Assembly (NCBI GenBank): GCA_963756005.1
Contig: CAVWMC010000001.1
Coordinates: forward strand, 198,872 to 262,871
From: an uncultured delta proteobacterium
GTDB taxonomy: Bacteria > Desulfobacterota > Binatia > Binatales > Binataceae
Direction: 5' to 3'
Length of the DNA stretch: 64,000 nucleotides
A program made the translations under genes and the position numbers. The notes under the pieces are model-generated. The model was not told the DNA's origin and did not search any database. It worked only from the letters and a program-made list of their open reading frames with translations. This document shows, piece by piece, positions 2,478 through 22,347 of the stretch; the first letter of the stretch is position 1, and the number at the start of each line of letters is the position of its first letter.

Positions 2478-3743
2478 TCAGATTCCCCCGACGAAGCATC
2501 CGGGGTTGAAGATCCCGGCAGGATCGAAGGCCGCCTTGAGCCGGCGCATAAGCGCGAGCGCGCCGACGTTGGGAGTGTCGAAGAATTCGAGTGAATCGCG
2601 AACAGCGGGCGCGGCGGCGAGCAAGCGAAGATTGCCGCGCGCCGAGTGGGCGGCCTCGCGCCATCGTGCAACCGTTTGGCTCGCGGTTTCGGCGGATGAT
2701 TCGCCGACGAGGAACATCTGCGCGACGCCGGAACCCGCGTGCGCGCGAAATTCAGCACCGCAGGCTTCCACCGCGCGCGCGAGATTCGCGGGTGGCACCG
2801 CCATTTGCGCGGACAGCCCGGCCGAATGAAAATCGAGATCGCGCAACTGTTCGTATCTGCGCATGGCCGCGTCGCGGTCGAGGATTTCGCCGCGCGCACC
2901 GAGCAGATCGCGAATCCGCTCAGCCTGGTAGCCAATTTCGAGCGCACTTCCGGAAAAACCGGCTAGAAGCAGAAATCGTTCGGTAAAATCGAAACGCATT
3001 GCGAGAGCCGGACTTAGTATATCGAGATTACTCAGTGGCAACGCATCATTGACTATGTGCGCGGCGGCGAACGCATCCGCCGCGCGCGCATAGGGTATGA
3101 GCGCGAGGCAGTATTCCGGTGGAATCGGACGCACTTTGAATGTCGCCTCAGTTACTATTCCCAGCGTGCCGAACGAGCCGCCCATCACTTTCATCAAATC
3201 ATAGCCCGCGACGTTTTTGACCACGCGGCCGCCGCCGTGAACAAGGTTGCCGCCGTGGCCGACGAAGCGAACGCCAATCAGCAGGTCGCGCGAAGTACCC
3301 TCTGAGAGGCGCAGCGGGCCGCAGTGCGACGCACCAATCAACGAGCCGAGAGTCGTTATCGCGGGGTCGCATGGATCGAGCGGAAGCCGCTGGCCTGAAG
3401 GCGCCATCGCTTCGTTCAGCGCGCCGACAGTGATTCCCGACTCCGCGACAACTGTCATGTCGTCGGGTTCGTAGGCGATTATCCGGGCCCGTCGCGCCAT
3501 CGAGATACCAAGTGCGACCGGCGACCGCCGGATCCCCGCGAGCGAGCGCGACGCGCCGATGGGTGCCAGCGCAATTCGATCGGCTTCGCACAGGCGGACG
3601 ATTTCACAGATTTCTTCGACCGACGCGGGCTCGACGATCGCATCGGCGGCGCGCGCCTCGCGACTGGTTGGCGTGCGAACATGGCCGGCGCCGACGATCG
3701 ACTCGAGACGGTTCGCAAGATTTGAAGGTGGAGTGGCAGCCAC
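2478..3743 (-). CDS. glcE: Glycolate oxidase FAD-binding subunit GlcE
   Basis: GGRVVKNVAGYDLMK and GSFGTLG motifs, C-terminal FDPAGIFNPG; lies between glcD and glcF. Confidence 0.9.
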   Translation of the reverse strand: MAATPPSNLANRLESIVGAGHVRTPTSREARAADAIVEPASVEEICEIVRLCEADRIALAPIGASRSLAGIRRSPVALGISMARRARIIAYEPDDMTVVAESGITVGALNEAMAPSGQRLPLDPCDPAITTLGSLIGASHCGPLRLSEGTSRDLLIGVRFVGHGGNLVHGGGRVVKNVAGYDLMKVMGGSFGTLGIVTEATFKVRPIPPEYCLALIPYARAADAFAAAHIVNDALPLSNLDILSPALAMRFDFTERFLLLAGFSGSALEIGYQAERIRDLLGARGEILDRDAAMRRYEQLRDLDFHSAGLSAQMAVPPANLARAVEACGAEFRAHAGSGVAQMFLVGESSAETASQTVARWREAAHSARGNLRLLAAAPAVRDSLEFFDTPNVGALALMRRLKAAFDPAGIFNPGCFVGGI

Positions 3744-3749
3744 GATCTT

Positions 3750-5183
3750 TTAAATCGGTACCTGGCGCCGCGGGGTGGCGACCTCGACGCATGCGCCGGG
3801 CTGCGGGATGACTTTGCCGGGATTCGATCGCTCGAATGGATCGAACACGTGACGCAATTCCGTCATGACGCGAAGATCGTCGGGCGAGAACATCAGCGGC
3901 ATTTCGCCGATTTTCTCGACGCCGATTCCGTGTTCGCCGGTCAGGCTGCCGCCCATCTCGATGCAGGCTTTGAGGATCTCGCGGCCCGCGTCGATCGCGC
4001 GGCGGACCTGGCCGGGCTCGCGCTCGTCGTAGAGAACGATCGGATGTAAATTGCCGTCGCCGGCGTGGAACACGTTGCCGATGCGCAAGTCGTAGCGGCG
4101 GCTGACGTCGGCGATCACGCGCAGAATCCGTGGCAGGCAGGTTCGCGGCACCACGCCGTCCTGAGTCGCGTAGTTCGGTGCGAGCCTCCCGACGGCCCCG
4201 AAAGCCCGTTTGCGCGCTTTCCACAACAGCGCGCGTTCCGCTTCGTCGCGCGCGAGCCTTACGCTCGACGCGCCGGCCGCGCTCACCGTCTTCGTCACCT
4301 CATCTGCATAGGCTGTCAGTCCCGCCTCGAGACCTTCGAGCTCGATGATCAGCACTGCCCCCGCATCGAGCGGCAGCCCCACATGAAACGCGGCTTCGAC
4401 CGCGCGAATGATGAGCTGGTCCATCATTTCAAGCGCGGCCGGCACAATTCCCGACGCGATTATCATCGACACGGCGTGCGTCGCGGTGTCGGCGTCGGGA
4501 AAAGTGGCGAGCAGCGTGCGATGGTTCTCTGGCTCGCGCATCAACTTGAGCGTTGCGCGCGTGACGATTCCGGTGGTGCCCTCAGCACCGACCACGGCGC
4601 CGACCAAATCGTAGCCGCATCGTTCTTCGGTCGAGTCGCCGAGCTCGACGACCTCGCCGTCAGGCAACACCAGCTCGAGTGCGAGCACGTGATTGGTGGT
4701 CACGCCGTATTTCAAGGTATGCGGACCGCCGGAGTTCTCGGCAATGTTGCCGCCGATCGTGCACGCCACCTGCGACGACGGGTCGGGCGCGTAGAAATAT
4801 CCGTTCGACTTGACGGCGTTGGTGACGTGCAGATTGACGACGCCGCTCTCGGCGACGACGCGCCGATTGTCGAGATCGATTTCGACGATCCGATTCATTT
4901 TCGACGTGCAGATCATCGCCGGCGCGTTCAAGGGAAGGCATCCGCCGGAAAGACCGGTGCCGGCGCCGCGCGGAACGAAGGCAACGCCGCCGCGATCGAG
5001 CGCGGTCAACACGGCGCTCAACTGCGCGGTCGTACGCGGCAGCATCAGCACGTCGGGGACGCTCTTCTCGACGGTCCATCCGTCGCACTCGTAAACTTTC
5101 AACTCGGTCGCGCGCGAGACGATCCCGTCGGCCCCGAGAATTTCGCGCAGCTGTTCGAGCAGTTTGCGATCGATGGCGTTCAT
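3750..5183 (-). CDS. glcD: Glycolate oxidase subunit GlcD (FAD-linked oxidase)
   Basis: PRGAGTGLSGG, APDPSSQ, ENSGGPHTLKYG, HAGDGNLHP and GEHGIGVEK motifs. Confidence 0.93.
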   Translation of the reverse strand: MNAIDRKLLEQLREILGADGIVSRATELKVYECDGWTVEKSVPDVLMLPRTTAQLSAVLTALDRGGVAFVPRGAGTGLSGGCLPLNAPAMICTSKMNRIVEIDLDNRRVVAESGVVNLHVTNAVKSNGYFYAPDPSSQVACTIGGNIAENSGGPHTLKYGVTTNHVLALELVLPDGEVVELGDSTEERCGYDLVGAVVGAEGTTGIVTRATLKLMREPENHRTLLATFPDADTATHAVSMIIASGIVPAALEMMDQLIIRAVEAAFHVGLPLDAGAVLIIELEGLEAGLTAYADEVTKTVSAAGASSVRLARDEAERALLWKARKRAFGAVGRLAPNYATQDGVVPRTCLPRILRVIADVSRRYDLRIGNVFHAGDGNLHPIVLYDEREPGQVRRAIDAGREILKACIEMGGSLTGEHGIGVEKIGEMPLMFSPDDLRVMTELRHVFDPFERSNPGKVIPQPGACVEVATPRRQVPI

Positions 5184-5317
5184 TAGTATTGCGACGGCGC
5201 GTTCAACCTCCGCAGCACTCTACCACGGCGGAATGCTTTTGCGTTTGATCCTTGGCCGTCATAATAGCAAGGTTCGATTTCAGCAACTGCGGCGATCGAT
5301 TGGAAGGAGAAACAAAG

Positions 5318-6539
5318 GTGGCGGAATCATTTCCAGAATTGAGGCCGGCGGCGCGGATACTGCTCGGCCCGGGACCGTCCAACGTCAATCCGCGCGTGAT
5401 GAAGGCGATGGCGTCGCCAGTCGTCGGGCATCTCGATCCCGATTTCCTCAAGGTGATGGAGAATATCAAGCAGCTCCTGCGCCTCGTGTTCCGCACGAAA
5501 AACGAGATCACGTTTCCGGTCTCCGGCACCGGTTCGGCTGGGATGGAAACCGTGATCGCGAATCTCGTCGAAGACGGCGACGAGGTCGTGGTCGGCGTCA
5601 ACGGCGCGTTCGGCGCGCGGCTGGCGGAGGTTGCGTCGCGACAAGGCGCGAAAGTTCACAAGGTCGAGGCGGAATGGGGAACGATCGTCGAGCCTGGCCA
5701 AAGTAGCGGCGGCGTTGAAGGCGGCGAAAAATCCCAAACTGGTCGCAGTCGTCCACGCCGAAACTTCGACCGGGATACATCAGCCGATCGAGGAGATCGC
5801 CGAGCTGGCGCATCGGCACGGCGCGATGATCGCGATCGACGCGGTGACGTCGCTCGCGTGTGTGCCGGTCGAAATTGACAAGTGGAACATCGACGCCTGC
5901 TACAGCTGCACGCAGAAGGGTCTCGGCGCGCCGCCGGGCCTGTCGCCGGTGACGTTCAGCGAGCGCGCGATGGAGTCGGTGCGCAAACGCAAGACGAAGT
6001 GCCGCTCATGGTACTTCGACGTCGCCCTGATCGAACAGTACTGGGGCCCCGACCGGCTGTACCATCACACGGCGCCGATCACGATGAACTATGCGCTCTA
6101 CGAGGCGCTGCGGATCGTCGTCGAGGAAGGGCTCGAAGCACGATGGCGTCGGCATCGCGTCAACGCGGCCGCGTTCCAGGCTGGAGTGCGCGCGATGGGT
6201 CTGCAGCTCGCGGCGCAGGAAGGATACCGGCTGCCGCAACTCACGACGATCGCGGTTCCGGCGAACATCGACGACGTGAAAGTTCGAGCGGAACTGCTGC
6301 GGCTATTCAATATCGAAATCGCGGCGGGTCTGGGACCGCTCAAGGGCAAAATCTGGCGCATCGGTCTGATGGGCGAAGGTTCGCGGCGCGAAAACGTGAT
6401 GCTCGCGCTCAACGCGCTCGAAGAAATTCTCGGTTCGATGGGATTCGAGATCGCGCGAGGCCGTGCGCTGACCGCCGCCGACAATTCTTACAGTGCGGAG
6501 GGAACCGGCGCGGGCGAGCCACCGGCGGAAGCGTCATGA
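5318..6539 (+). pseudogene. Alanine/serine-glyoxylate aminotransferase (class V PLP) interrupted by a +1 frameshift near 5696 (pseudogene or sequencing error)
   Basis: N-half LLGPGPSNV...GTGSAGME in one frame; VHAETSTG and SCTQKGLGAPPGL in another. Removing one G at 5696 joins EWGTIVEP to AKVAAALK. GTG start 5318 follows SD GGAAGGAG. Confidence 0.88.
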
Positions 6540-10047: not shown

Positions 10048-12591
<2,544 letters not shown>

Positions 12592-12781
12592 TCAAACGAT
12601 ATTTGAATTCTCTGCCTGTTGACAGAAAAGAAGCGGATCAGCGGGCATTTTCTGTCGTCTCTACCCGACGATCAGCGAGCCTTTAATTAAAAGCTCACCG
12701 TACGCCTAACAGAACATCATTCTGCGAGATTCGATGCCCACAGGTCCGTGCTGAAAACGGTTCGGAATCTCACCTGTTTTT

Positions 12782-13471
12782 TCACTCGCAGGCGCGCTCG
12801 ATTCCGTCGAAAAATTGCCACCACATTTCGAGCGATCGCTCGACCGCGGCCCATACTTTCGCGCGCTCGACTTCGCTCATCGGCGTATGACTTAGAATGT
12901 TGTCGCCGACGTCGCTGTGATCGCGATCAGCGATTTCATGCACGTCGAAAAATGCGACCTGCTCCCGCGAAAGTCCGTAGTTCTTTTCGAGCGCGCGCGC
13001 GAACGGCGCGAAGTTGCCCGGCACCTGGCCCTCCGCCGCCAGATTGATTGCGCCGATTCCCTCGGCGAACGAGCGGTCCTTGGTCGAAAGCTCGAACCAA
13101 TCGATCAGCGCCGCCGTCGAGGGCAGCGCCTTGCCGTGAATCATATCGTCGCGGCTGAGCCCCAGTCCGAGTCCAAGCCGGATGAACAATTCCGGATGCG
13201 GCGCGCTGCCGGAAATCTTGCCGGTCTCCTCCTCGTACAGGCTCTCGGCGAGCTTGACCCGCTCGTCGGCGTTGACGCATCGCGAATGCAGCGCGCTCAG
13301 CGCCCGCGGAAACTCGCGCACCTGCAAAAAGAACTGCGTCGCGAAGGCGCACATTCCGGTCTGCGAAACTTTGCCCTCGGCAATTCGATGCCAAATCGGA
13401 TGACGCCCGAAAGAGCGCCGCTCTTTGACCATCGCGAAGATCTCGCGCACGAATCCGTCATTCGCAGCCAT
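12782..13471 (-). CDS. TenA/PqqC/CADD-like heme-oxygenase-like diiron protein
   Basis: CADD-like motifs FPRALSALHSRC, EEETG...H, AAEGQ, and HxxxDxxH (VHEIADRDH). Confidence 0.8.
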   Translation of the reverse strand: MAANDGFVREIFAMVKERRSFGRHPIWHRIAEGKVSQTGMCAFATQFFLQVREFPRALSALHSRCVNADERVKLAESLYEEETGKISGSAPHPELFIRLGLGLGLSRDDMIHGKALPSTAALIDWFELSTKDRSFAEGIGAINLAAEGQVPGNFAPFARALEKNYGLSREQVAFFDVHEIADRDHSDVGDNILSHTPMSEVERAKVWAAVERSLEMWWQFFDGIERACE

Positions 13472-13536
13472 GGCTAAACCTCATACCCGCGAATGTACGA
13501 AAGCGCGCCCGCAATGTGAAGCGAATCGAATCGAAT

Positions 13537-13788
13537 GCGGGGCTACGCGCCCCGCGCCCGCGGCAGGGGTGACCCCTGCACCCACTGTTCGGTAAGGGAA
13601 TATGCGGGCTGACGCCCGGTTAGGAAGCTTTGGGCGTGAGGACGCGAAGCGACCTCGTGCCCGTAGTCGCGCACAAAGCTCGACGTTCCTGCCATAAAAC
13701 TTCTAACAGGGACGGAGTCCCGCATCTTCTCTCTTATCACTGGGTGCAGGGGTCACCCCTGCCGAGGGTGCGGGGCGAGCAGCCCCGC
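13537..13788. repeat. REP-like/REPIN-like element: 48-bp inverted arms (44/48 identical) around a ~150-nt self-complementary core
   Basis: Arms 13537-13584 and 13741-13788 are reverse complements; each holds two small hairpins (GCGGGGC..GCCCCGC and GCAGGGG-TGA-CCCCTGC). Confidence 0.85.
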
Positions 13789-13791
13789 GTC

Positions 13792-15582
13792 TCAATCGAC
13801 GTGTTGCAAATCGGTCAGCATCTCCTGCGGCCCGATGTATCCGACTTTGCGCTGCGCCACTTTGCCGGCCGAGTCGATTAGCATGGTCGTCGGCACGCCC
13901 TGGATTTCGTACTTGCTGGTCAGCTCCGCGGTCTTTTTGTCCTGCGCGGTGAGGTTCGCCTTCATCCGCACGAAGCGCTTCGCCTCGGTGACCACGGACG
14001 GATCGATAAAGGTCGAATGCTCCATTTCGCGGCACGGAATACACCAATCGGCGCTGAAGTCGATCAGCACCGGCTTGCGCGCTTCGGTGGCTGACGCGAG
14101 CGCTTTGGCGTTGAACGGCTCGAAGCGAAGTTTCTCCGGCGCCTGCCGCGGATAGAGCATGAAGGCGAGCGCCGCCACCGCGACCACGCCGATCGCCGAC
14201 CGCATCAACAGGAACGGACGCCAGCTACGACCCTCGCGCGAAATGAAGCCGAGGTAAATTCCAACGCCGGCCGCGTAGTACGGCAGGATTCGCGTCATCA
14301 GGTTGTTCGGCACCACCGGATCGAGAAAGTAGAGCGCGAGTCCGACCAGCACGAAGCCGAACAGATGCTCGACCCACGCCAGCCACTCGCCCGATCGCGG
14401 CAGGCGCCGAATATGCCCTGCCGCCATCGCGAGCCCGATGTATGGCACGCCAAGCCCCAGTGCCAGCGTGAAGAACAGCGCGAAACCAAAAAATGGGCTC
14501 CCGCTTTTCTCGACCATCAGCAGCAGACCGAGCACGATCGGCCCGATGCAAGGCGCCGCGACGACGCCCATGCCGAGGCCCATCAGAAATGCGCCCGCGT
14601 AGCCGGGATGCGCCGCGCCCGCGCGCTGCAGCATCCACTGAGGCGGCTGCAAAACGAACAGGCCGAAGCTCGACGCCGCCAGGGCCAGGAGCACCGTTGC
14701 CAGGGCGACGAGCACGAATGGATTTTGCATCGCGGCGCCGAACAGCCCGCCCGACATCGCGACCGCTACTCCCACCGACGAGAACATCAGCGCGATGCCG
14801 AGCACGAAAACCATCGCGAGGTACATCACGCGGCGATGAGTGCCGCCCTGGTTGCCGAAGTAGGCGATCGTCACGCCGATCAGCGGATAGACGCAGGGCG
14901 TCAGATTCAGCGCGAGGCCGCCGAGAAACACCGCGAGGAAGCCGAGCAGCCATCCGTGATTGAGAAAGATATGCTCGATGGCGCCGCCCGCGTCATCGCC
15001 GCCGCCGACTCCACGGCCCTTCGCGCCGCCCGCGGCAACGCCCTCGATCGCGCCCGCGGCCGCTCCTGGAGCCGCCAACGCGACTGTCGTGCTGACGGAT
15101 GCGGGCCGCAGACATTCGTTGTTGTTACAGCCCTGGTAGTCGATCGTGACCTTGAGTTCATCGCCCGGCTTCGGCGCGAAGTCGGCAGCCGCCTTGAGCG
15201 GCACCTCAAACTTGAGATCGCCGCCGAACACCGCAATCTTGTCGCCACCGGCCGCAGGATCGAGCGTTATCGTTTCCGCCGGCGGATACTTGATTGCGCC
15301 CGGCGTCACGCTGACCGGCCCGCTGACCTCGAGCTTGGTCGGAATGTAATCTTCGCTGAACGGCTTGTCCGAATTGATATGCCAATCCGGAATAACGGCG
15401 GCGGCGACTTTGAGCGTGCTCGAACCGCCGGCCTTCAGCGGAGGATCGATCGTCGCGGAATTGATTATTACAAGGTCATTCGCCTTGACGGCATGCGCCG
15501 CAGGCACCGCAAGCAAAGTTACGGCAAGGAACGCTCCAGCCAGTATTGTGCCGCGCAAAAGCGATCGGAAATTGCCCGTCAT
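13792..15582 (-). CDS. dsbD: Thiol:disulfide interchange protein DsbD
   Basis: Signal peptide, N-domain QGCNNNECLRP, TM cysteines LTPCVYP and AAPCIGP, C-terminal thioredoxin WCIPC. Confidence 0.9.
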   Translation of the reverse strand: MTGNFRSLLRGTILAGAFLAVTLLAVPAAHAVKANDLVIINSATIDPPLKAGGSSTLKVAAAVIPDWHINSDKPFSEDYIPTKLEVSGPVSVTPGAIKYPPAETITLDPAAGGDKIAVFGGDLKFEVPLKAAADFAPKPGDELKVTIDYQGCNNNECLRPASVSTTVALAAPGAAAGAIEGVAAGGAKGRGVGGGDDAGGAIEHIFLNHGWLLGFLAVFLGGLALNLTPCVYPLIGVTIAYFGNQGGTHRRVMYLAMVFVLGIALMFSSVGVAVAMSGGLFGAAMQNPFVLVALATVLLALAASSFGLFVLQPPQWMLQRAGAAHPGYAGAFLMGLGMGVVAAPCIGPIVLGLLLMVEKSGSPFFGFALFFTLALGLGVPYIGLAMAAGHIRRLPRSGEWLAWVEHLFGFVLVGLALYFLDPVVPNNLMTRILPYYAAGVGIYLGFISREGRSWRPFLLMRSAIGVVAVAALAFMLYPRQAPEKLRFEPFNAKALASATEARKPVLIDFSADWCIPCREMEHSTFIDPSVVTEAKRFVRMKANLTAQDKKTAELTSKYEIQGVPTTMLIDSAGKVAQRKVGYIGPQEMLTDLQHVD

Positions 15583-15638
15583 TGCTTTCCTGAGAAAAAA
15601 CTATGCGCATGCGGCCGCGGTTGCTGAACAGTGTACAT

Positions 15639-16811
15639 CTATTTGGCGGCGCCTGCGTGCTTGCCGTTGGTCGAAAGCGGGACCGATCCCACGATTTCCA
15701 GTCCGTAGCCCGGCAGATTCGCCAGCCGCGGCGTCGCGTCCGACATGATGATCATCTTGCGCACGCCAACATCGCGCAGAATCTGTGCGCCGATTCCGTA
15801 ATCGCGGAAATCAGCTTCCGGCTGGTTGGCCCGCGTAGTCGCGCGCTTCGCCGAGCGCCCATTGTCGAAATCCGCCGCCAGCGCATTCGACTCGCGCTTG
15901 AGATACAGCAGCACGCCCTCACCCGCCGCCGAAATTCGTTCCATCGCGGACCGCAGCAGGTTGCGCGTGTTGCGCACCGAGTAGCCGAACACGTCGCCGG
16001 GCAAATACTCGCGATGCGCCCGCACCAGGATCGGCTTTTTCGGATCGACCTTGCCCATCACCAGCACCAGGTGCTCGGTATAATCGACCAGGTTGCGATA
16101 AACGATCGCGCTGAATTCGCCGTACGCCGTCGGCAGCTTCGCTTCCGCGATTCGCTGCACCATCGTCTCGTTGCGCAGCCGATACTCGATAATGTCCGCG
16201 ACCGTGACAATCTTGAGCCCGTGCACTTTTGCGAACTCGACCAGGTCGTCGCGCCGCGCCATCGTGCCGTCATCCTTCAGAATCTCGCAGATGACGCCGG
16301 CCGGCTTCAGTCCCGCCAGGCGCGCCAGATCGACCGCGCCCTCGGTCTGCCCCGTGCGCACCAGTACGCCGCCGTCGCGTGCGCGCAGCGGATAGACGTA
16401 GCCGGGCGTGATGAACTCACTACCGCTGGCGTCCTCGCGCACTGCCTGCAGAATCGTCGTCGATCGATCCTGCGCCGAGATTCCCGAGCCCGACGCCCGC
16501 CGCGCGGTGATCGCCGTCGTGAACGCGGTGCCGAGCGGCGCCTGGTTATCGCCAATCATCATGCTGAGGCCCAGCCGGTCGATCCGCTCCGCCGACATCG
16601 GCAGGCAAATCAGCCCGCGCCCGAACTTGGCCATGAAGTTGACGGCCTCGGGCGTCGCCTTCTCGGCCGCCATGCACAAATCGCCCTCGTTCTCGCGCTG
16701 CTCGTCATCCATCAGGATGATCATATGTCCGCGACGAGTTTCCTCGAGCGCTTCCTCGATCGAAATGAACGGCGCGCGCGCCTTCTTGCGGGGACTTATC
16801 TCACCAAACAT
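15639..16811 (-). CDS. ribB: RibBA/RibBX-like protein (DHBP synthase domain plus degenerate GTP cyclohydrolase II-like domain)
   Basis: RENEGDL, GLICLP and ISAQDR motifs; the C-domain keeps RDYGIGAQIL but has no Zn-binding cysteines. Confidence 0.85.
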   Translation of the reverse strand: MFGEISPRKKARAPFISIEEALEETRRGHMIILMDDEQRENEGDLCMAAEKATPEAVNFMAKFGRGLICLPMSAERIDRLGLSMMIGDNQAPLGTAFTTAITARRASGSGISAQDRSTTILQAVREDASGSEFITPGYVYPLRARDGGVLVRTGQTEGAVDLARLAGLKPAGVICEILKDDGTMARRDDLVEFAKVHGLKIVTVADIIEYRLRNETMVQRIAEAKLPTAYGEFSAIVYRNLVDYTEHLVLVMGKVDPKKPILVRAHREYLPGDVFGYSVRNTRNLLRSAMERISAAGEGVLLYLKRESNALAADFDNGRSAKRATTRANQPEADFRDYGIGAQILRDVGVRKMIIMSDATPRLANLPGYGLEIVGSVPLSTNGKHAGAAK

Positions 16812-16896
16812 TCTGCGGCTCTCGCTAAACTCTTACTCAACTATATACCGTCAGCCAAGCATTCCCGAAGGTCGGCGCGATGCTATCTTGGGCGAG

Positions 16897-17655
16897 GTGG
16901 CGGCGGAAATTAATACGGCGGTCCTGCTGGGGGCTGGGCGCGGCAAACGTCTGGGCGATTTGACGGCAAACACGCCGAAACCGATCCTCGACATCGCAGG
17001 CGCGCCGCTGATTTCGCACATCGTTGACGCGCTGACCGGCGCCGGACTGGCGCGTTTTATCGTGGTGACAGGCTACCTGTCCGCGCAAATCGAAAAATGG
17101 GCGAAAACCTACGAGCGCGAAAATCCGGGCGTCGGAATTATCACCGTCAGGCAGCCGGAACTGAACGGAACCGGCGGCGCGATGCTCGCGGCGAAGACTC
17201 ATCTCGCCGGCCACGCGCGCTTTGTCTTCGGATGGGGCGACATCCTGATGGACCGCGCCAACTATCCGCGCTTCATCCATCACGCGCGGATCGACGAGTA
17301 CGATTTGATGCTCGCAGTGAATCGCGTGAAGGATCCGTTTCGCGGCGCGGCGGTTTACGTGACCCCGCACATGATAGTTGAACGGCTCGATGAAAAACCG
17401 GCGCCCGGAACCGCGCAGACCGAATGGAACAACGCCGGGCTCTTCGCCACCGGCCAGATAATTTTCGACTACCTCGCGCGGCTGACGCCGTCCGTGCGCG
17501 GTGAGCTCGAGCTGCCCGCCGCAATCGCGCAAATGATCGCCGACGGCCGCGTCGTCCGCGCGGTTGATATGCGCGGATTCTGGAGCGACGTCGGCACGCC
17601 CGAAGATCTCGAGGCGGCGCGCGCATGGTTCAAGCCCAAAAGGAAGCGGCGATGA
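16897..17655 (+). CDS. Sugar-phosphate nucleotidyltransferase (NTP_transferase family)
   Basis: VLLGAGRGKRLGDLTANTPKP signature, QPELNGTG, WSDVGTPEDL; GTG start chosen at 16897. Confidence 0.88.
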   Translation: MAAEINTAVLLGAGRGKRLGDLTANTPKPILDIAGAPLISHIVDALTGAGLARFIVVTGYLSAQIEKWAKTYERENPGVGIITVRQPELNGTGGAMLAAKTHLAGHARFVFGWGDILMDRANYPRFIHHARIDEYDLMLAVNRVKDPFRGAAVYVTPHMIVERLDEKPAPGTAQTEWNNAGLFATGQIIFDYLARLTPSVRGELELPAAIAQMIADGRVVRAVDMRGFWSDVGTPEDLEAARAWFKPKRKRR

Positions 17656-19034
17656 ATCTGCCCGACGGATGGGACGCCGAAGAGTTGGCGCGCGCGAAAC
17701 TGCTCGGCGCGAAGATTCCAACCAGCGCGAACGCGCAAATCTTCGCGGCGCGCGCGCCCGGGCGCGTCAATCTGATCGGCGAGCACACCGACTACAGCGG
17801 CCTGCCCGTGCTGCCGGTCGCGATCGATCGATCAACGATTGTTATTGCCGCCGGCAATGACACCGGTGAAGTCGAGTTGGCGAACGCCGACCCGGCGTGG
17901 CCTGCGCGTCGTTTCGAAATCGAACGTCATATAGCGCCTTATGAAACCGGCGATTGGGCGAACTACGTAAAGGCTGCGATTCAGGGCGTGCTTGATCAAT
18001 TCTCTGCGCGCAGCAACTGGCGCGGCGCTTCGATGGTTGTCGGCAGCACAGTGCCTCCCGCCGCGGGGCTTTCGTCATCGAGCGCGCTCACCGTCGCTAC
18101 CGCGATGGCCTTCATGGCGGTAAACCAACTCGAACTGGATCCGCTGGAAACCGCGGCGATGGTTGCGCGCAGCGAACGCTACGTCGGAACGCACGGCGGT
18201 GGGATGGATCAGGCAGTCTCGATTCTCGGCCGCCGCGACCACGCGCTGTTCATCGAGTTCGACCCGCTGCGCGTGCGCGCGATTAAGATGCCGGCGAACG
18301 CGGCGCTGGTCGTCGCAGATAGCAGGCAAATCGCGGACAAGTCGGGAACGGTGCGAGCGGAATACAATCGGCGCGTCGTCGAATGCTCGCTGGCGGCGCG
18401 GATTCTCGGGCATGCGCTCAAGCTCGACGGCGTCAGAATCCTGGGCGACCTCGTTCGCGCACTGCCGCATCGGAACGCGGCGGACCTTGTTGAAACACTC
18501 GCGGCGGCGGCGCCGGCCCGGCTCAACGCGAATCTTAAAGAGGCGGCGAGTATTCTCGGCGTCGCGCAATCGTCGCTCGACGCGGAGCTGCTCGGCCACG
18601 GATCGACTCGAATCGTGCTGGATTCAAGCCGCCCACTGGAAATTCTAAAGCGCGCGCGTCACGTCCTGAGCGAGACCAATCGCGTGATTCGCGCGGCGGA
18701 CGCGCTCGAAGCGGGTCATCTCGACGAGATGGGCGCGCTGATGAACGCGTCGCATCAGAGTCTCGCCGGCGACTTCGAGTGCAGCACGGCGCGCCTCGAC
18801 GCGCTCGTGGAATGTGCGCGGCGCGGCGGCGCGCTCGGCGCACGGCTGACGGGCGCGGGCTTCGGCGGTTCGATCGTCGCGCTATGCGACGTGACCAGGG
18901 CGGAGGCGGTGATCGAATCGATCGATCGCGGCTACTACGCGCAGCAGCATCCGGGCGCGCCGCCGGAACCCTGGCGCGCCGTGTTCCATTCCGGCGCGGG
19001 CGCGAGCGTGCTCGATTTGAGTGCTACCGCTTGA
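17652..19034 (+). CDS. galK: GHMP sugar kinase, galactokinase / N-acetylgalactosamine kinase-like
   Basis: APGRVNLIGEHTDY, PPAAGLSSSSA, ERYVGTHGGGMDQ and GARLTGAGFGG motifs; ATGA overlap with the nucleotidyltransferase. Confidence 0.9.
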   Translation: MNLPDGWDAEELARAKLLGAKIPTSANAQIFAARAPGRVNLIGEHTDYSGLPVLPVAIDRSTIVIAAGNDTGEVELANADPAWPARRFEIERHIAPYETGDWANYVKAAIQGVLDQFSARSNWRGASMVVGSTVPPAAGLSSSSALTVATAMAFMAVNQLELDPLETAAMVARSERYVGTHGGGMDQAVSILGRRDHALFIEFDPLRVRAIKMPANAALVVADSRQIADKSGTVRAEYNRRVVECSLAARILGHALKLDGVRILGDLVRALPHRNAADLVETLAAAAPARLNANLKEAASILGVAQSSLDAELLGHGSTRIVLDSSRPLEILKRARHVLSETNRVIRAADALEAGHLDEMGALMNASHQSLAGDFECSTARLDALVECARRGGALGARLTGAGFGGSIVALCDVTRAEAVIESIDRGYYAQQHPGAPPEPWRAVFHSGAGASVLDLSATA

Positions 19035-20959
19035 TCCGCAGGATGCGAGCGGAGTGCGGCGGCAGCTCGATCGTATCGAAGATTTCGATTTTCTCGTCCA
19101 ACGCGAGGTCGAGCGCAACGATTTCGCCCGCACCCAGATTTAGATCCGACCTTTGCACGCGTGCCGACGAGTCGCCGCGATTCAGAATCATCGCGATCGC
19201 GCCGCCGTCTTGAGTTTCAGTGATCAGTCCGCGAACGTCGCCGTTGGTCATCAGATTCAGCGCCAGCACCGGCTCGCGCGCCGCGTTGGAATCGATCTCC
19301 TCGGCGATTTGCGCGGCTGCACGAAACAGTTTTCCCGCTTCGGCGTCGAGCAGGCTCATGTCGTCGGAAATCAACAGCATCCCGCCGCTGCCGACGATCG
19401 TGGCGGCCAATGCGGCGCGTTCGTCGGCGGTGAGTTTGGTTTTGCGCGCCCGCAGCATCAGGCAGTCGGGATCGTTGAGCCACAGTCGCCGATGCATGAA
19501 GCTGCGCGCGATGATCGCGTCGAGCGCATAAACCGTTGACGGGTCGCCCGCCCCGGAAGCCGTCGATCCCCAGAACGGCGATACGTCGGGCCCGATGCGC
19601 ATCCCGTCCACGACGCCGACCGCCTGCCCCAGCGGGCATCCACAGCCGAGGATGAACGCGTCGTCGCCGGCGCCCTCGCGAATCGCCTCGAGGCCCTGCC
19701 GCAGCGTTTCGCCGCGCGTAAGATTTTGATCGTGACGCTTACCGGGCGCGGCTGCGGCGTAGAGAAAATCGAGTTTCAGATACGAGTAGCCGAAGTCGCG
19801 CGTGAGTTTCGCGAACAGCTGCCGCAGGTGCGCGCGAAACGCCGGGTTGCTCGGGTCGAGCGCGTACGCGAACTTGTCGTCGCTTCCGGTCCAGTTCGGA
19901 TTGTAGCCGGCGCGAACCGGCTCGCCGCTTTCCGCGTGCATGATGAACCAATCCGGATGATGCGCCATCAGGCGCGAGTCGCGCGCGGCGAGAAATGGCG
20001 CAGTCCAGATGCCGGCCTTGAATCCCGCCGCGCGAATTTCGCCGGCAATTTTCTTCAGCCCGCTCGGAAACTTGGAATTGGTGATATCCCAATCGCCGAG
20101 CGCCGCCTGGAAACCGTCGTCGATCTGAACTACGTCGAGCGGAAACTCGGAGCGCATCGCCTCGAGCGACTTGAGATTGGCGCGGATCGCGTCTTCTGTG
20201 ATCGCGTGAAAGTAGTGGTACCAGGAACACCATCCGCGCTGAAACGGCGCGCTCACGCGCGCGTTCATCCAGCGGCCGGCGGCGTCGGCCCATCGCGCGG
20301 CGAGGCGCGCCGCGGATTCATCTGCGGTGGCGATCAACAGTGGATCAAGTTCGCGATGCGCGCCCGGCGCCAGGGTTACGTCGTCAAGGATCGCACGTGC
20401 GGTTATTTTCTCGGGACTCGCAACTGTGAGAGTCGAAAGCGACGCGGTGGCGCCGATGAATCCAGCCAGCACACGCTCCGTGACATTGTTGCTTTCGACG
20501 ATTGTGAAAAGCTCGGAGGTCTGAGCCTCCGGAAAATTCTGGCGGGCGAGTCGTCTCGCTCTGATGATTGACGCGCGTGATGAAATTGGCAGTGTCGCGC
20601 GGATGGGTTTGCGACGCGCTTACATCGTGTCCCCCCGACGCGCTCCACGACTGGTAGCCATGCTTGAAGAATCGCGCCGGTGCCGACGCCGCGAAGCCGG
20701 TCGCGACGTCGAAGATCGCGGAAGTGAGTCGAACCGCGTCGGCGCCGCGATTGGCGACGGTCGCACGCACGATGGTACCGCCGATCGCTTTTTCCAGATG
20801 CGTGGAGAGCGTGACGCCGTCGCGGCCGGCGCTGGGCTCATCCGCGGCCAGAGCAAGCGCGCGCGCATCTCCCGCAGCGTCGAGGAAGCGCAGTTCGATT
20901 CGCGAGACCAGTGCGTTTGCCACGCCGGTGAGGTTTGCAAACACGCGCCATCGCGGCAA
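19024..20959 (-). pseudogene. GH36 alpha-galactosidase-like glycosidase with a +1 frameshift in the A4 run at 20533-20536 (pseudogene or sequencing error)
   Basis: GWCSWYHYF, QIDDGFQ, GIWTAPF, YLKLDF and MRIGPDV motifs resemble Thermotoga GalA; N-terminal KHGYQSWS is in another frame; deleting one base joins PPEF to PEAQTSELFT. Start uncertain. Confidence 0.87.
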
Positions 20960-20991: not shown

Positions 20992-22347
20992 GTGGGGGAG
21001 TTCGCCAGCTCGGGAGGGCAAATCATCGATACCGTTCCGGAGATAGAAGCCGCCGAGCTTGACGAGGCGGGCGGCGACGTTCCCGCGCAGGATAACTGGA
21101 GCGGCAGGCTCGCCGCGTTCCGCGCGCTGCGGCATCGCAACTTCAGGCTGTTCTTCGTCGGCCAGCTGATTTCGCTGATCGGCACCTGGATGCAGATGGT
21201 CGCGCAATCGTGGCTGGTGCTGAAGCTCACGAACTCGTCGATGATGCTCGGCATCGTCTCCTTTGCCGGCTTCATGCCGATCGTGCTGGTCGCCTTGTTC
21301 GCCGGTGTGGTGGTCGATCACGTCGATCGGCGGCGCCTGATTATCGGCGCGCAAACACTCTTGATGCTCAGCGCGTTCGTGCTCGCGGCACTGACGTGGG
21401 CCGGCGTCGTCAAGGTCGAATACGTGATCGCGCTCGCCGCGCTCAACGGGCTGGTGAGTTCGTTCGACATGCCGGGGCGGCAGGCGTTCGTGGTCGAGAT
21501 GGTGGGACGCGAAGACCTGCCCAACGCGATCTCGATGAACTCGATGATCTTCAACGGCGCGCGCATGATTGGCCCGGCCATTGCCGGTATGTCGCTCGCA
21601 GTGATTGGAATCGCCGGCTGCTTCCTGCTCAACGGCGTCAGCTATCTGGCCGTCATCTGGAGCCTGCTCGAGATGGAGCTGCCCCGGCGCGAGCGGCGCG
21701 AATTCGGCGCCACCATGATGCTCCAGGTGCGGCTCGGACTCGCCTACGTCTGGCGCCATCGCCCGACGCTGTGGCTGCTGGTGCTGGTCGCGATCAACAT
21801 GGGAATCGGGATGCAATATTCCGTGCTGATTCCGATCTTCGCGCGCGACCTGCTGCACGTCGGTGCGCATGGCTACGGCTTCCTGATGGCGGCGCAGGGG
21901 TTGGGCGCGGTGATCAGCGCGATCGTCATGAACATGCGCTCGACCGCACCCAAAACGCTGCGGCAAAACCTGGTGTTCGGAATCTTCTGCATGGCAATTG
22001 CGACGGCGGGCTTCGGCCTATCGACCTGGATGTCCATCTCGCTGCTCGCGCAGATGTTCATCGGCGTCGGCTTGATGAATCACATGGTGACAACCAACAC
22101 TCTGCTGCAGATGTTCGTAACCGACGAACTGCGCGGCCGCGTCATGAGCATCTATACGCTGTCCTTCATCGGCACCGCGCCGATCGGCAGCCTCGCAGTC
22201 GGCTTCATCGGAGAGCATTTTAGTCCGCGCGCGGCCGTGTTGTTCTGCGCGGTATTCTCGCTGATGTGTGGCTTCATCTTGCTGACCAAGCTGAAGTTGA
22301 TCGCCCATGCACAGGCGGAAATTGAGCAAACTACTGTTAGGGGTTAG
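20992..22347 (+). CDS. MFS transporter (DHA3/DUF894-like)
   Basis: FRALRHRNFRLFFVGQLISLIGTWMQ, about 12 hydrophobic segments, DELRGRVMSIY. Confidence 0.9.
   Translation: MGEFASSGGQIIDTVPEIEAAELDEAGGDVPAQDNWSGRLAAFRALRHRNFRLFFVGQLISLIGTWMQMVAQSWLVLKLTNSSMMLGIVSFAGFMPIVLVALFAGVVVDHVDRRRLIIGAQTLLMLSAFVLAALTWAGVVKVEYVIALAALNGLVSSFDMPGRQAFVVEMVGREDLPNAISMNSMIFNGARMIGPAIAGMSLAVIGIAGCFLLNGVSYLAVIWSLLEMELPRRERREFGATMMLQVRLGLAYVWRHRPTLWLLVLVAINMGIGMQYSVLIPIFARDLLHVGAHGYGFLMAAQGLGAVISAIVMNMRSTAPKTLRQNLVFGIFCMAIATAGFGLSTWMSISLLAQMFIGVGLMNHMVTTNTLLQMFVTDELRGRVMSIYTLSFIGTAPIGSLAVGFIGEHFSPRAAVLFCAVFSLMCGFILLTKLKLIAHAQAEIEQTTVRG

Follow-up and report, generated by a model that had tools for sequence, protein, structure and literature searches.

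How could a soil bacterium that lacks GalT make use of galactose? This question is raised by a locus of an uncultured delta proteobacterium of the genus Binatus (Binataceae, soil; genome of 4.7 Mb, 95% complete), which we analyzed within a stretch of 64,000 nt with a G+C content of about 63% (the window). Homologs of the encoded proteins carry the name Candidatus Binatus (Binatota) in their source records. At this locus a gene for a nucleotidyltransferase (NT) is coupled to a gene for a sugar kinase, and a gene for a glycosidase of family GH36 converges on this pair. We predict that the three genes constitute a module for the cytoplasmic salvage or utilization of alpha-galactosides that bypasses GalT, and assign a probability of roughly 0.6 to this reading. 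The parts of the module are (window coordinates):

16897..17655, plus strand: NT, a sugar-1-phosphate nucleotidyltransferase of 252 aa with a GTG start; PF00483 with 95.2 bits.
17652..19034, plus strand: long-type GHMP anomeric sugar kinase of 460 aa, predicted galactokinase; TIGR00131 with 280.9 bits.
19024..20944, minus strand: predicted GH36 alpha-galactosidase of the TmGalA type, split here into an N-terminal frame (20384-20959) and a C-terminal frame (19024-20472).
20526..20533, minus strand: extra base that disrupts the GH36 reading frame, in the minus-strand sequence TCCGGAGG, where intact relatives have TCC GAG G or CCC GAR G.

The ATG of the kinase gene (17652) overlaps the NT stop codon as ATGA. 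This coupling had been noted in an initial annotation made from the letters of this stretch, and our analysis confirmed it. The same annotation had described a GH36 gene converging with an overlap of 11 nt. The stop codons of the GH36 gene and the kinase gene do converge with such an overlap (19024-19034), but the reading frame of GH36 is interrupted in the window by a frameshift at 20526-20533, which had been missed. The overlap itself was not retained as significant, because the spacing varies among relatives.

No match to GalT of class I (PF01087) or class II (TIGR01239) was found in the 95%-complete genome, while the controls were positive. A tblastn search with GalT of E. coli gave no match in this genome either, and GalT was present in 0 of the 25 genomes of the genus. 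GalM was also not found in the genome of the strain. The genome has a GalU homolog (310 bits; cut-off 326.8) and two GalE-like short-chain dehydrogenases/reductases (SDRs), for which galE was the best or second-best model (191.9 and 169.6 bits; cut-off 262.3). PF01704 had no match in this genome, but the control genomes also gave none, so that this absence is weakly shown. Two other Binatia genomes, which have a long kinase without NT, showed weak matches to the GalT family.

The kinase gene was present in 23 of the 25 genomes of the genus, and the gene order (ribBA, then NT and kinase facing GH36, then in part the MFS transporter gene, then selA) was kept in nearly all of the genus. Using NT we found 80 metagenome loci. 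The kinase gene was the next gene after NT in 67 of the 68 loci with room for it, and GH36 was present in 29 of 31 with room. The synteny within the Binatia is one inherited arrangement and counts as one event. A metagenome scan with the NT alignment returned only Binatia-like loci, which confirmed the conservation in the lineage and added no independent events. The ratio of nonsynonymous to synonymous substitution rates (dN/dS) was 0.08-0.29 for NT, kinase, and GH36, and the trio is therefore maintained under purifying selection. A deletion was seen at one Binatia-like locus (L186; Ga0307373_10017009, about 3356-5825), where NT is followed by an N-terminal remnant of GH36 and then by the MFS gene, while the kinase gene and most of GH36 are deleted.

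The kinase harbors the motifs SERYVGTHGGGMDQ, IEFDPLR, YNRRVVECSLAARIL, and KRARHV. The counterparts in human GALK2 are SERYIGTEGGGMDQ, IEFSPLR, and FNIRVMECRLAAKLL, as seen in a HMMER alignment to PDB entry 2A2C. Among solved structures human GALK2 (2A2C) was the closest to the kinase, with 233.9 bits in a single stretch over residues 30-453, followed by Gal1p (160 bits), GALK1 (142 bits), and prokaryotic GalKs (130-139 bits). The Binatus kinase has a GGMDQ motif and an insertion of 80 residues, compared with 75 residues in GALK2, whereas GalKs of the E. coli type have CGIMDQ and 17-31 residues at the insertion site. In an AlphaFold2 model of the kinase (pLDDT 95.4) the insertion forms four short helices (264-314) and is flanked by two long helices (233-255 and 331-353). 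A Foldseek search with this model ranked GALK2 first (TM 0.85/0.88), Gal1p and Gal3p next, and then GALK1 (about 0.74). All motifs and the helical insertion that the initial annotation had listed as GALK2-like were thus present, and its statement that typical bacterial GalK has CGIMDQ and lacks the long insertion also held for GalKs of the E. coli type.

The kinase passed the curated galactokinase model TIGR00131 (280.9 bits; cut-off 226.65), and PF10509, PF00288, and PF08544 were each found above their cut-offs. It is the sole GalK-like gene of its genome. In the alignment it keeps R38, E44, H45, D47, D186, and Y238, which correspond to R37, E43, H44, D46, D186, and Y236 of GALK1; we take these GALK1 positions to be the galactose-binding and catalytic residues.

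We searched 1.84 billion cluster representatives with the kinase and obtained 2273 clusters at E<=1e-30. The top 150 representatives, which are bacterial and metagenomic, were almost all of the GGMDQ type, and an insertion of at least 60 residues was present in 109 of 171 aligned sequences. Two maximum-likelihood trees separated the long-type proteins from the CGIMDQ kinases, among them GalK of E. coli and human GALK1; the Binatus kinase did not group with these ordinary GalKs in the phylogeny that the initial annotation had proposed as a check. The eukaryotic long-type sequences formed one clade of 13 rows (support 98-99) among many bacterial clades, and this clade holds human GALK2, a named insect GALK2, and yeast Gal1p. 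The clade of the Binatus kinase was separate from the eukaryotic clade and not its sister (unresolved polytomy), and the kinase did not fall inside the GALK2 clade. The long GGMDQ architecture is widespread in uncultured bacteria, with the eukaryotic sequences as one clade among many. The earlier label of a eukaryote-type kinase therefore holds for the GALK2/Gal1-like architecture, but not in the sense of a eukaryotic speciality, since the long GGMDQ type is common in bacteria. The idea that the NT-linked kinases form a single clade was rejected; in a tree of poor resolution they branched at four or more positions.

Some GalK-like kinases in the search carried additional domains. Two proteins of a Gemmatimonadota-type clade, P0214 (798 aa; L242, on a contig of 3.05 Mb) and P0223 (739 aa), are extended at the N-terminus by about 350-400 residues, within which lies a MobA-like NTP_transf_3 domain. 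This architecture, reminiscent of Fkp, represents another kind of fusion between a nucleotidyltransferase and a kinase, unrelated to the fusion that involves NT. Another protein, P0248 (528 aa), has an N-terminal HTH_3 DNA-binding domain and may be a fusion of a kinase and a regulator.

NT consists of a single PF00483 domain without an acetyltransferase domain, and has the N-terminal GxGxR(L/M) motif in the form GAGRGKRLG. It did not reach any curated equivalog model of NCBIfam. The best matches, all under the cut-off, were Arch_glmU (147 bits), AglF (122 bits), and rmlA_long (112 bits), which are of the UTP/dTTP type. The GTP-type model man1P_GTase scored 83, and the MurU models matched weakly, below the UTP/dTTP-type families. 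NT has an invariant Gln86; at the aligned position RffH/RmlA and ST0452 also have Gln, and the GTP-dependent GMPPB has Glu. This Gln is presumably the base-reading residue of RffH and ST0452, and the alignment suggests that NT uses UTP or dTTP. We predict that NT is a galactose-1-phosphate (Gal-1-P) uridylyl- or thymidylyltransferase of the pyrophosphorylase type. Within the genus the dN/dS of NT was 0.12-0.21. Residue 12 of NT (16930-16932), in the nucleotide-binding motif LAAGxGxR, is Gly in the window; all 12 of 12 close relatives and 4 orthologs from other phyla have Ala.

The two GH36 frames of the window can be joined if one base is dropped in the minus-strand sequence TCCGGAGG at 20533-20526. 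Seven intact GH36 orthologs of congeners have one open reading frame across this site, and full-length homologs comprise about 630-650 aa. A protein from short-read assemblies, P0409, represents an intact allele of 639 aa, identical to the C-terminal piece of the window at 477 of 482 positions, and reads RPPEFSEAQTSELF across the break site. A sister contig from another metagenome (L056; ENA ERZ25039497 contig_11771), 98.9% identical to the window, lacks the extra base of the window. Instead, a different base is inserted in its GH36 gene about 30 nt upstream, and a further frameshift (an extra T) lies inside its NT gene. Because the extra bases differ in site and an intact allele exists in P0409, we concluded that the break in GH36 is probably an assembly indel and less likely a strain-level lesion. 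Programmed frameshifting was rejected for the same two reasons. The occurrence of differing one-base insertions within 30 nt in two assemblies points to indel-prone, probably long-read, assemblies, and caution is therefore advisable with any further "frameshift" or missing start codon of this genome. The GH36 gene probably starts at the GTG at 20944 rather than at the TTG at 20959.

For the comparison of GH36 to TmGalA of Thermotoga maritima (1ZY9, 5M0X) we used an intact ortholog (L047:7095-9026). It matched TmGalA with 272.6 bits and about 45% identity over the catalytic domain. The motifs LKLDFL (KxDFL) and MRIGPD (RIGPD) are kept; we take them to be the nucleophile motif and the acid/base motif of GH36, respectively. 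No obvious signal peptide was seen in the GH36 sequence when judged by eye.

The module or its NT-kinase pair was also found outside the Binatia. In a member of the Anaerolineaceae (Chloroflexota) the three genes lie on one strand in a different order, with the kinase gene overlapping NT by GTGA and NT overlapping GH36 by ATGA; NT and GH36 are 48% and 40% identical to the Binatus proteins. The Dehalococcoidia have a kinase-NT pair, the Armatimonadota an NT-kinase pair with an ATGA overlap, and an unclassified metagenome-assembled genome (MAG) has NT followed by the kinase. A further MAG from NCBI has NT and kinase joined by ATGA, with an NT of 50% identity. A protein of 658 aa (P0126), identical in two sequencing runs, is a natural fusion of a long kinase with an NT ortholog of 48% identity. 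At two loci (L091, Armatimonadota, 11369-16127, and G159:C501:1896-3981) the pair adjoins a CUT2-type ABC transporter for monosaccharides with a binding protein, a double ATPase, and two permeases. The distribution of the module is patchy: NT was found in 1 of 251 sampled genomes of the Chloroflexota, which was the seed genome (10 candidates scored per genome), and many long kinases have no NT neighbor. A scan of genome contigs with the kinase alignment was dominated by ordinary GalKs and returned a handful of long-type loci. The synteny survey that the initial annotation had called for thus found the trio co-conserved in the genus and the pair recurring in other phyla.

The proposed pathway builds on the identities of the genes, their coupling and conservation, and the absence of GalT as described above; which sugar and which nucleotide are used, and what becomes of the product, we infer. 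The retaining GH36 of the TmGalA type would free alpha-D-galactose from an imported or endogenous alpha-galactoside. The long-type kinase would then phosphorylate galactose at C1 to alpha-Gal-1-P, and the translationally coupled NT would convert Gal-1-P and an NTP, most likely UTP, to UDP-galactose (UDP-Gal) and pyrophosphate. A retaining GH36 would supply the anomer that the kinase needs, which would fit a genome without mutarotase. UDP-Gal could enter glycan synthesis or could be epimerized by a GalE-like SDR and then be converted to glucose-1-phosphate (Glc-1-P) by the separate GalU; such a return of UDP-Gal to Glc-1-P is possible at most. The initial annotation had proposed a route from glycoside to sugar-1-phosphate and NDP-sugar that is independent of GalT, possibly for N-acetylgalactosamine (GalNAc). 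The first part is supported by the lack of GalT, the co-conservation of the trio, the recurrence in other lineages, and the fusion protein, while GalNAc became the less likely sugar.

The sequences favor galactose over GalNAc, because GH36 is close to a true alpha-galactosidase, the galactose-ligand residues of the kinase are kept, and position 238 is Tyr. At the position of GALK1 Tyr236 the Binatus kinase has Tyr238; every NT-linked kinase and Gal1p also have Tyr there, as do 158 of the 171 sequences. Phe was present at this position in 5 of 5 sampled members of the metazoan GALK2 subclade (human GALK2, GALK2 of Thrips, and three others). This position may govern the specificity at C2 of the sugar. 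The CUT2-type monosaccharide transporter beside the Armatimonadota pair was also counted toward galactose.

Several observations weigh against a galactose module that replaces GalT. Among enzymes of solved structure, the one closest to the kinase phosphorylates GalNAc, and the automated JGI names call many kinase homologs "N-acetylgalactosamine kinase" and some NT homologs UDP-GlcNAc or UDP-GalNAc diphosphorylase. We found no characterized member of the NT subfamily or of the bacterial long-type kinases in the literature. GH36 is broken into two frames in the window, no GalE above the curated cut-off was found in the genome, and the dN/dS of NT between the window and the sister strain was about 0.7 (few sites, 14 changed codons). 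Two genomes, G159 (Armatimonadota) and G160 (unclassified), have the NT-kinase pair together with classical galK genes and matches to GalT; in G159 the classical galK and GalT genes are adjacent to each other and lie elsewhere than the pair. We therefore rejected the view that NT invariably replaces GalT. The pair in G159 and G160 may serve anabolic salvage or another sugar. It is mainly this coexistence that holds our overall confidence at the stated value.

The kinase, the glycosidase, and NT would have to act on other substrates if the module served the salvage of GalNAc (or galactosamine), with GH36 as alpha-N-acetylgalactosaminidase, the kinase as a GALK2-like GalNAc 1-kinase, and NT as UDP-GalNAc pyrophosphorylase, an arrangement that mirrors GALK2/AGX1 of mammals. 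GALK2 is the nearest solved structure in both sequence and fold, NT is similar to the N-terminal domain of ST0452, an enzyme that reportedly acts on GalNAc-1-P, the JGI annotations name the pair as GalNAc enzymes, and the coexistence of galK and GalT with the pair in G159 and G160 parallels mammals, which have GALK1/GALT beside GALK2. However, the kinase does not belong to the metazoan GALK2 subclade and has Tyr238 like Gal1p and GALK1 instead of Phe. Its genome encodes an alpha-galactosidase and no second GalK-like kinase. Since GH36 in addition shares about 45% identity and nearly the same active-site motifs with a true alpha-galactosidase, we consider salvage of GalNAc improbable. L-arabinopyranose, or another sugar of galacto configuration, would be the substrate if GH36 were a beta-L-arabinopyranosidase, the kinase an arabinokinase, and NT an enzyme forming UDP-L-Ara. 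The plant arabinokinase is a relative of GalK, and a GH36 beta-L-arabinopyranosidase model was the only NCBIfam match of the GH36 piece. This match was weak (29.9 bits; cut-off 1100), the match to TmGalA was far stronger (272 bits), and the equivalents E44 and H45 of the residues that hold the 6-OH of galactose in GalKs are kept, which makes this option very improbable indeed.

The genes could also be neighbors without a shared pathway, with an ordinary GalK whose product would go to some other enzyme, such as a promiscuous GalU, and an NT that activates an unrelated sugar-1-phosphate such as Glc-1-P. The specificity of NT cannot be read from its sequence, the synteny in the Binatia is vertically inherited and stands for one event, and many long-type kinases lack an NT neighbor. 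Nevertheless, at least five lineages that differ in gene order have start/stop overlaps of NT and kinase genes, a natural NT-kinase fusion exists, and the genome already has a separate GalU, so that unlinked functions are quite improbable. An explanation of another kind is that the module is decaying in this strain, with a real GH36 frameshift and relaxed selection on NT. The window and its 98.9%-identical sister contig have different GH36 frameshifts, and the NT of the sister contig is also frameshifted. The dN/dS between the two was 0.70 for NT and 0.88 for the N-terminal part of GH36, and the NT of the window has at least five derived amino-acid substitutions, residue 12 included. On the other hand, short-read assemblies contain with P0409 an allele of 99% identity that is intact, two indels 30 nt apart at different sites fit errors of long-read assembly, very few changes were counted (14 codons in NT), and the dN/dS for the kinase and the C-terminal part of GH36 was 0.14-0.19. 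We regard decay as unlikely, though deserving attention. Salvage of galactose by a functional GalT-independent module accordingly remains the reading that we prefer.

The logic of this predicted galactose route is the same as in the Isselbacher route of plants and trypanosomatids, in which a long-type GGMDQ GHMP kinase forms Gal-1-P and an NTP-dependent pyrophosphorylase forms UDP-Gal without GalT. The second enzyme of the Isselbacher route is USP of the UDPGP family (PF01704), whereas Binatus has an NT of 252 aa with PF00483 that is similar to RmlA, MurU, and ST0452, and the Binatus genes are grouped with an alpha-galactosidase. In the galactoside cluster of Thermotoga maritima, which we take to consist of galA (TmGalA), galK, and galT, a TmGalA-type GH36 is likewise clustered with a galactokinase. 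Compared with this cluster and with the Leloir genes galETKM, Binatus lacks GalT and GalM, its kinase is of the long type instead of the CGIMDQ type, and an NTP-transferase stands in the place of GalT. Human GALK2 (2A2C/2A2D) shares the insertion, GGGMDQ, and IEFxPLR with the Binatus kinase. It differs by an identity of 32-33% (Foldseek), by its position in another clade, and by Phe instead of Tyr at position 238, and the glycosidase that partners the Binatus kinase points to galactose.

Two-step pairs of a kinase and a PF00483-type transferase, often coupled or fused, are AmgK/MurU, HddA/HddC, and Fkp (fucokinase/GDP-fucose pyrophosphorylase). These act on other sugars, and AmgK is not a GHMP kinase. 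The statement of the initial annotation that such a route is known mainly from eukaryotes was therefore not upheld, since salvage pairs of kinase and pyrophosphorylase are known in bacteria for other sugars. In the full-text literature searched we found no characterized member of the bacterial kinase-transferase pairs that acts on galactose, and no description of a bacterial NT-GalK module or of bacterial long-type GalKs.

The neighbors of the module are housekeeping genes (gyrB, dsbD, ribBA, selA) and a gene for a luciferase-like oxidoreductase. Two further features border the module:

16812..16896, no strand assigned: intergenic region of 85 nt between the divergent ribBA and NT genes, presumed from its position to contain the NT-kinase operon promoter.
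20992..22347, plus strand: MFS_3 transporter gene, divergent from GH36; PF05977 with 213 bits.

The MFS_3 gene adjoins GH36 in most relatives and is missing in several; its product may possibly be an accessory importer for the module. RibBA, encoded next to the module (15639-16811), and its orthologs showed a dN/dS of 0.03-0.07 across the genus. This very strong purifying selection speaks against degeneration of the protein, even though its active-site residues are unusual.

A wider proposal is that the members of the NT subfamily serve bacteria as dedicated Gal-1-P uridylyltransferases of the pyrophosphorylase type (EC 2.7.7.10-like), which together with the long kinase would form a GalT-independent pathway. 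This pathway would be the only galactose route of the Binataceae and would have been scattered by gene transfer or fusion among the Chloroflexota, the Armatimonadota, and other uncultured lineages, and eukaryotic GALK2/Gal1 would be one offshoot of a mainly bacterial family. We put this forward tentatively, at somewhat less than an even chance. If true, it would assign genes to a bacterial UDP-galactose pyrophosphorylase route and would correct the automated annotations as GalNAc kinase and UDP-GalNAc diphosphorylase. The compact pair of kinase and transferase could serve in the one-pot synthesis of UDP-sugars. No principle would be overturned, as salvage by a kinase and a pyrophosphorylase is a familiar design. 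The finding would explain how galactose is handled without GalT across the Binataceae, an uncultured soil lineage, and would mean that the GALK2/Gal1-type kinase is not a speciality of eukaryotes.

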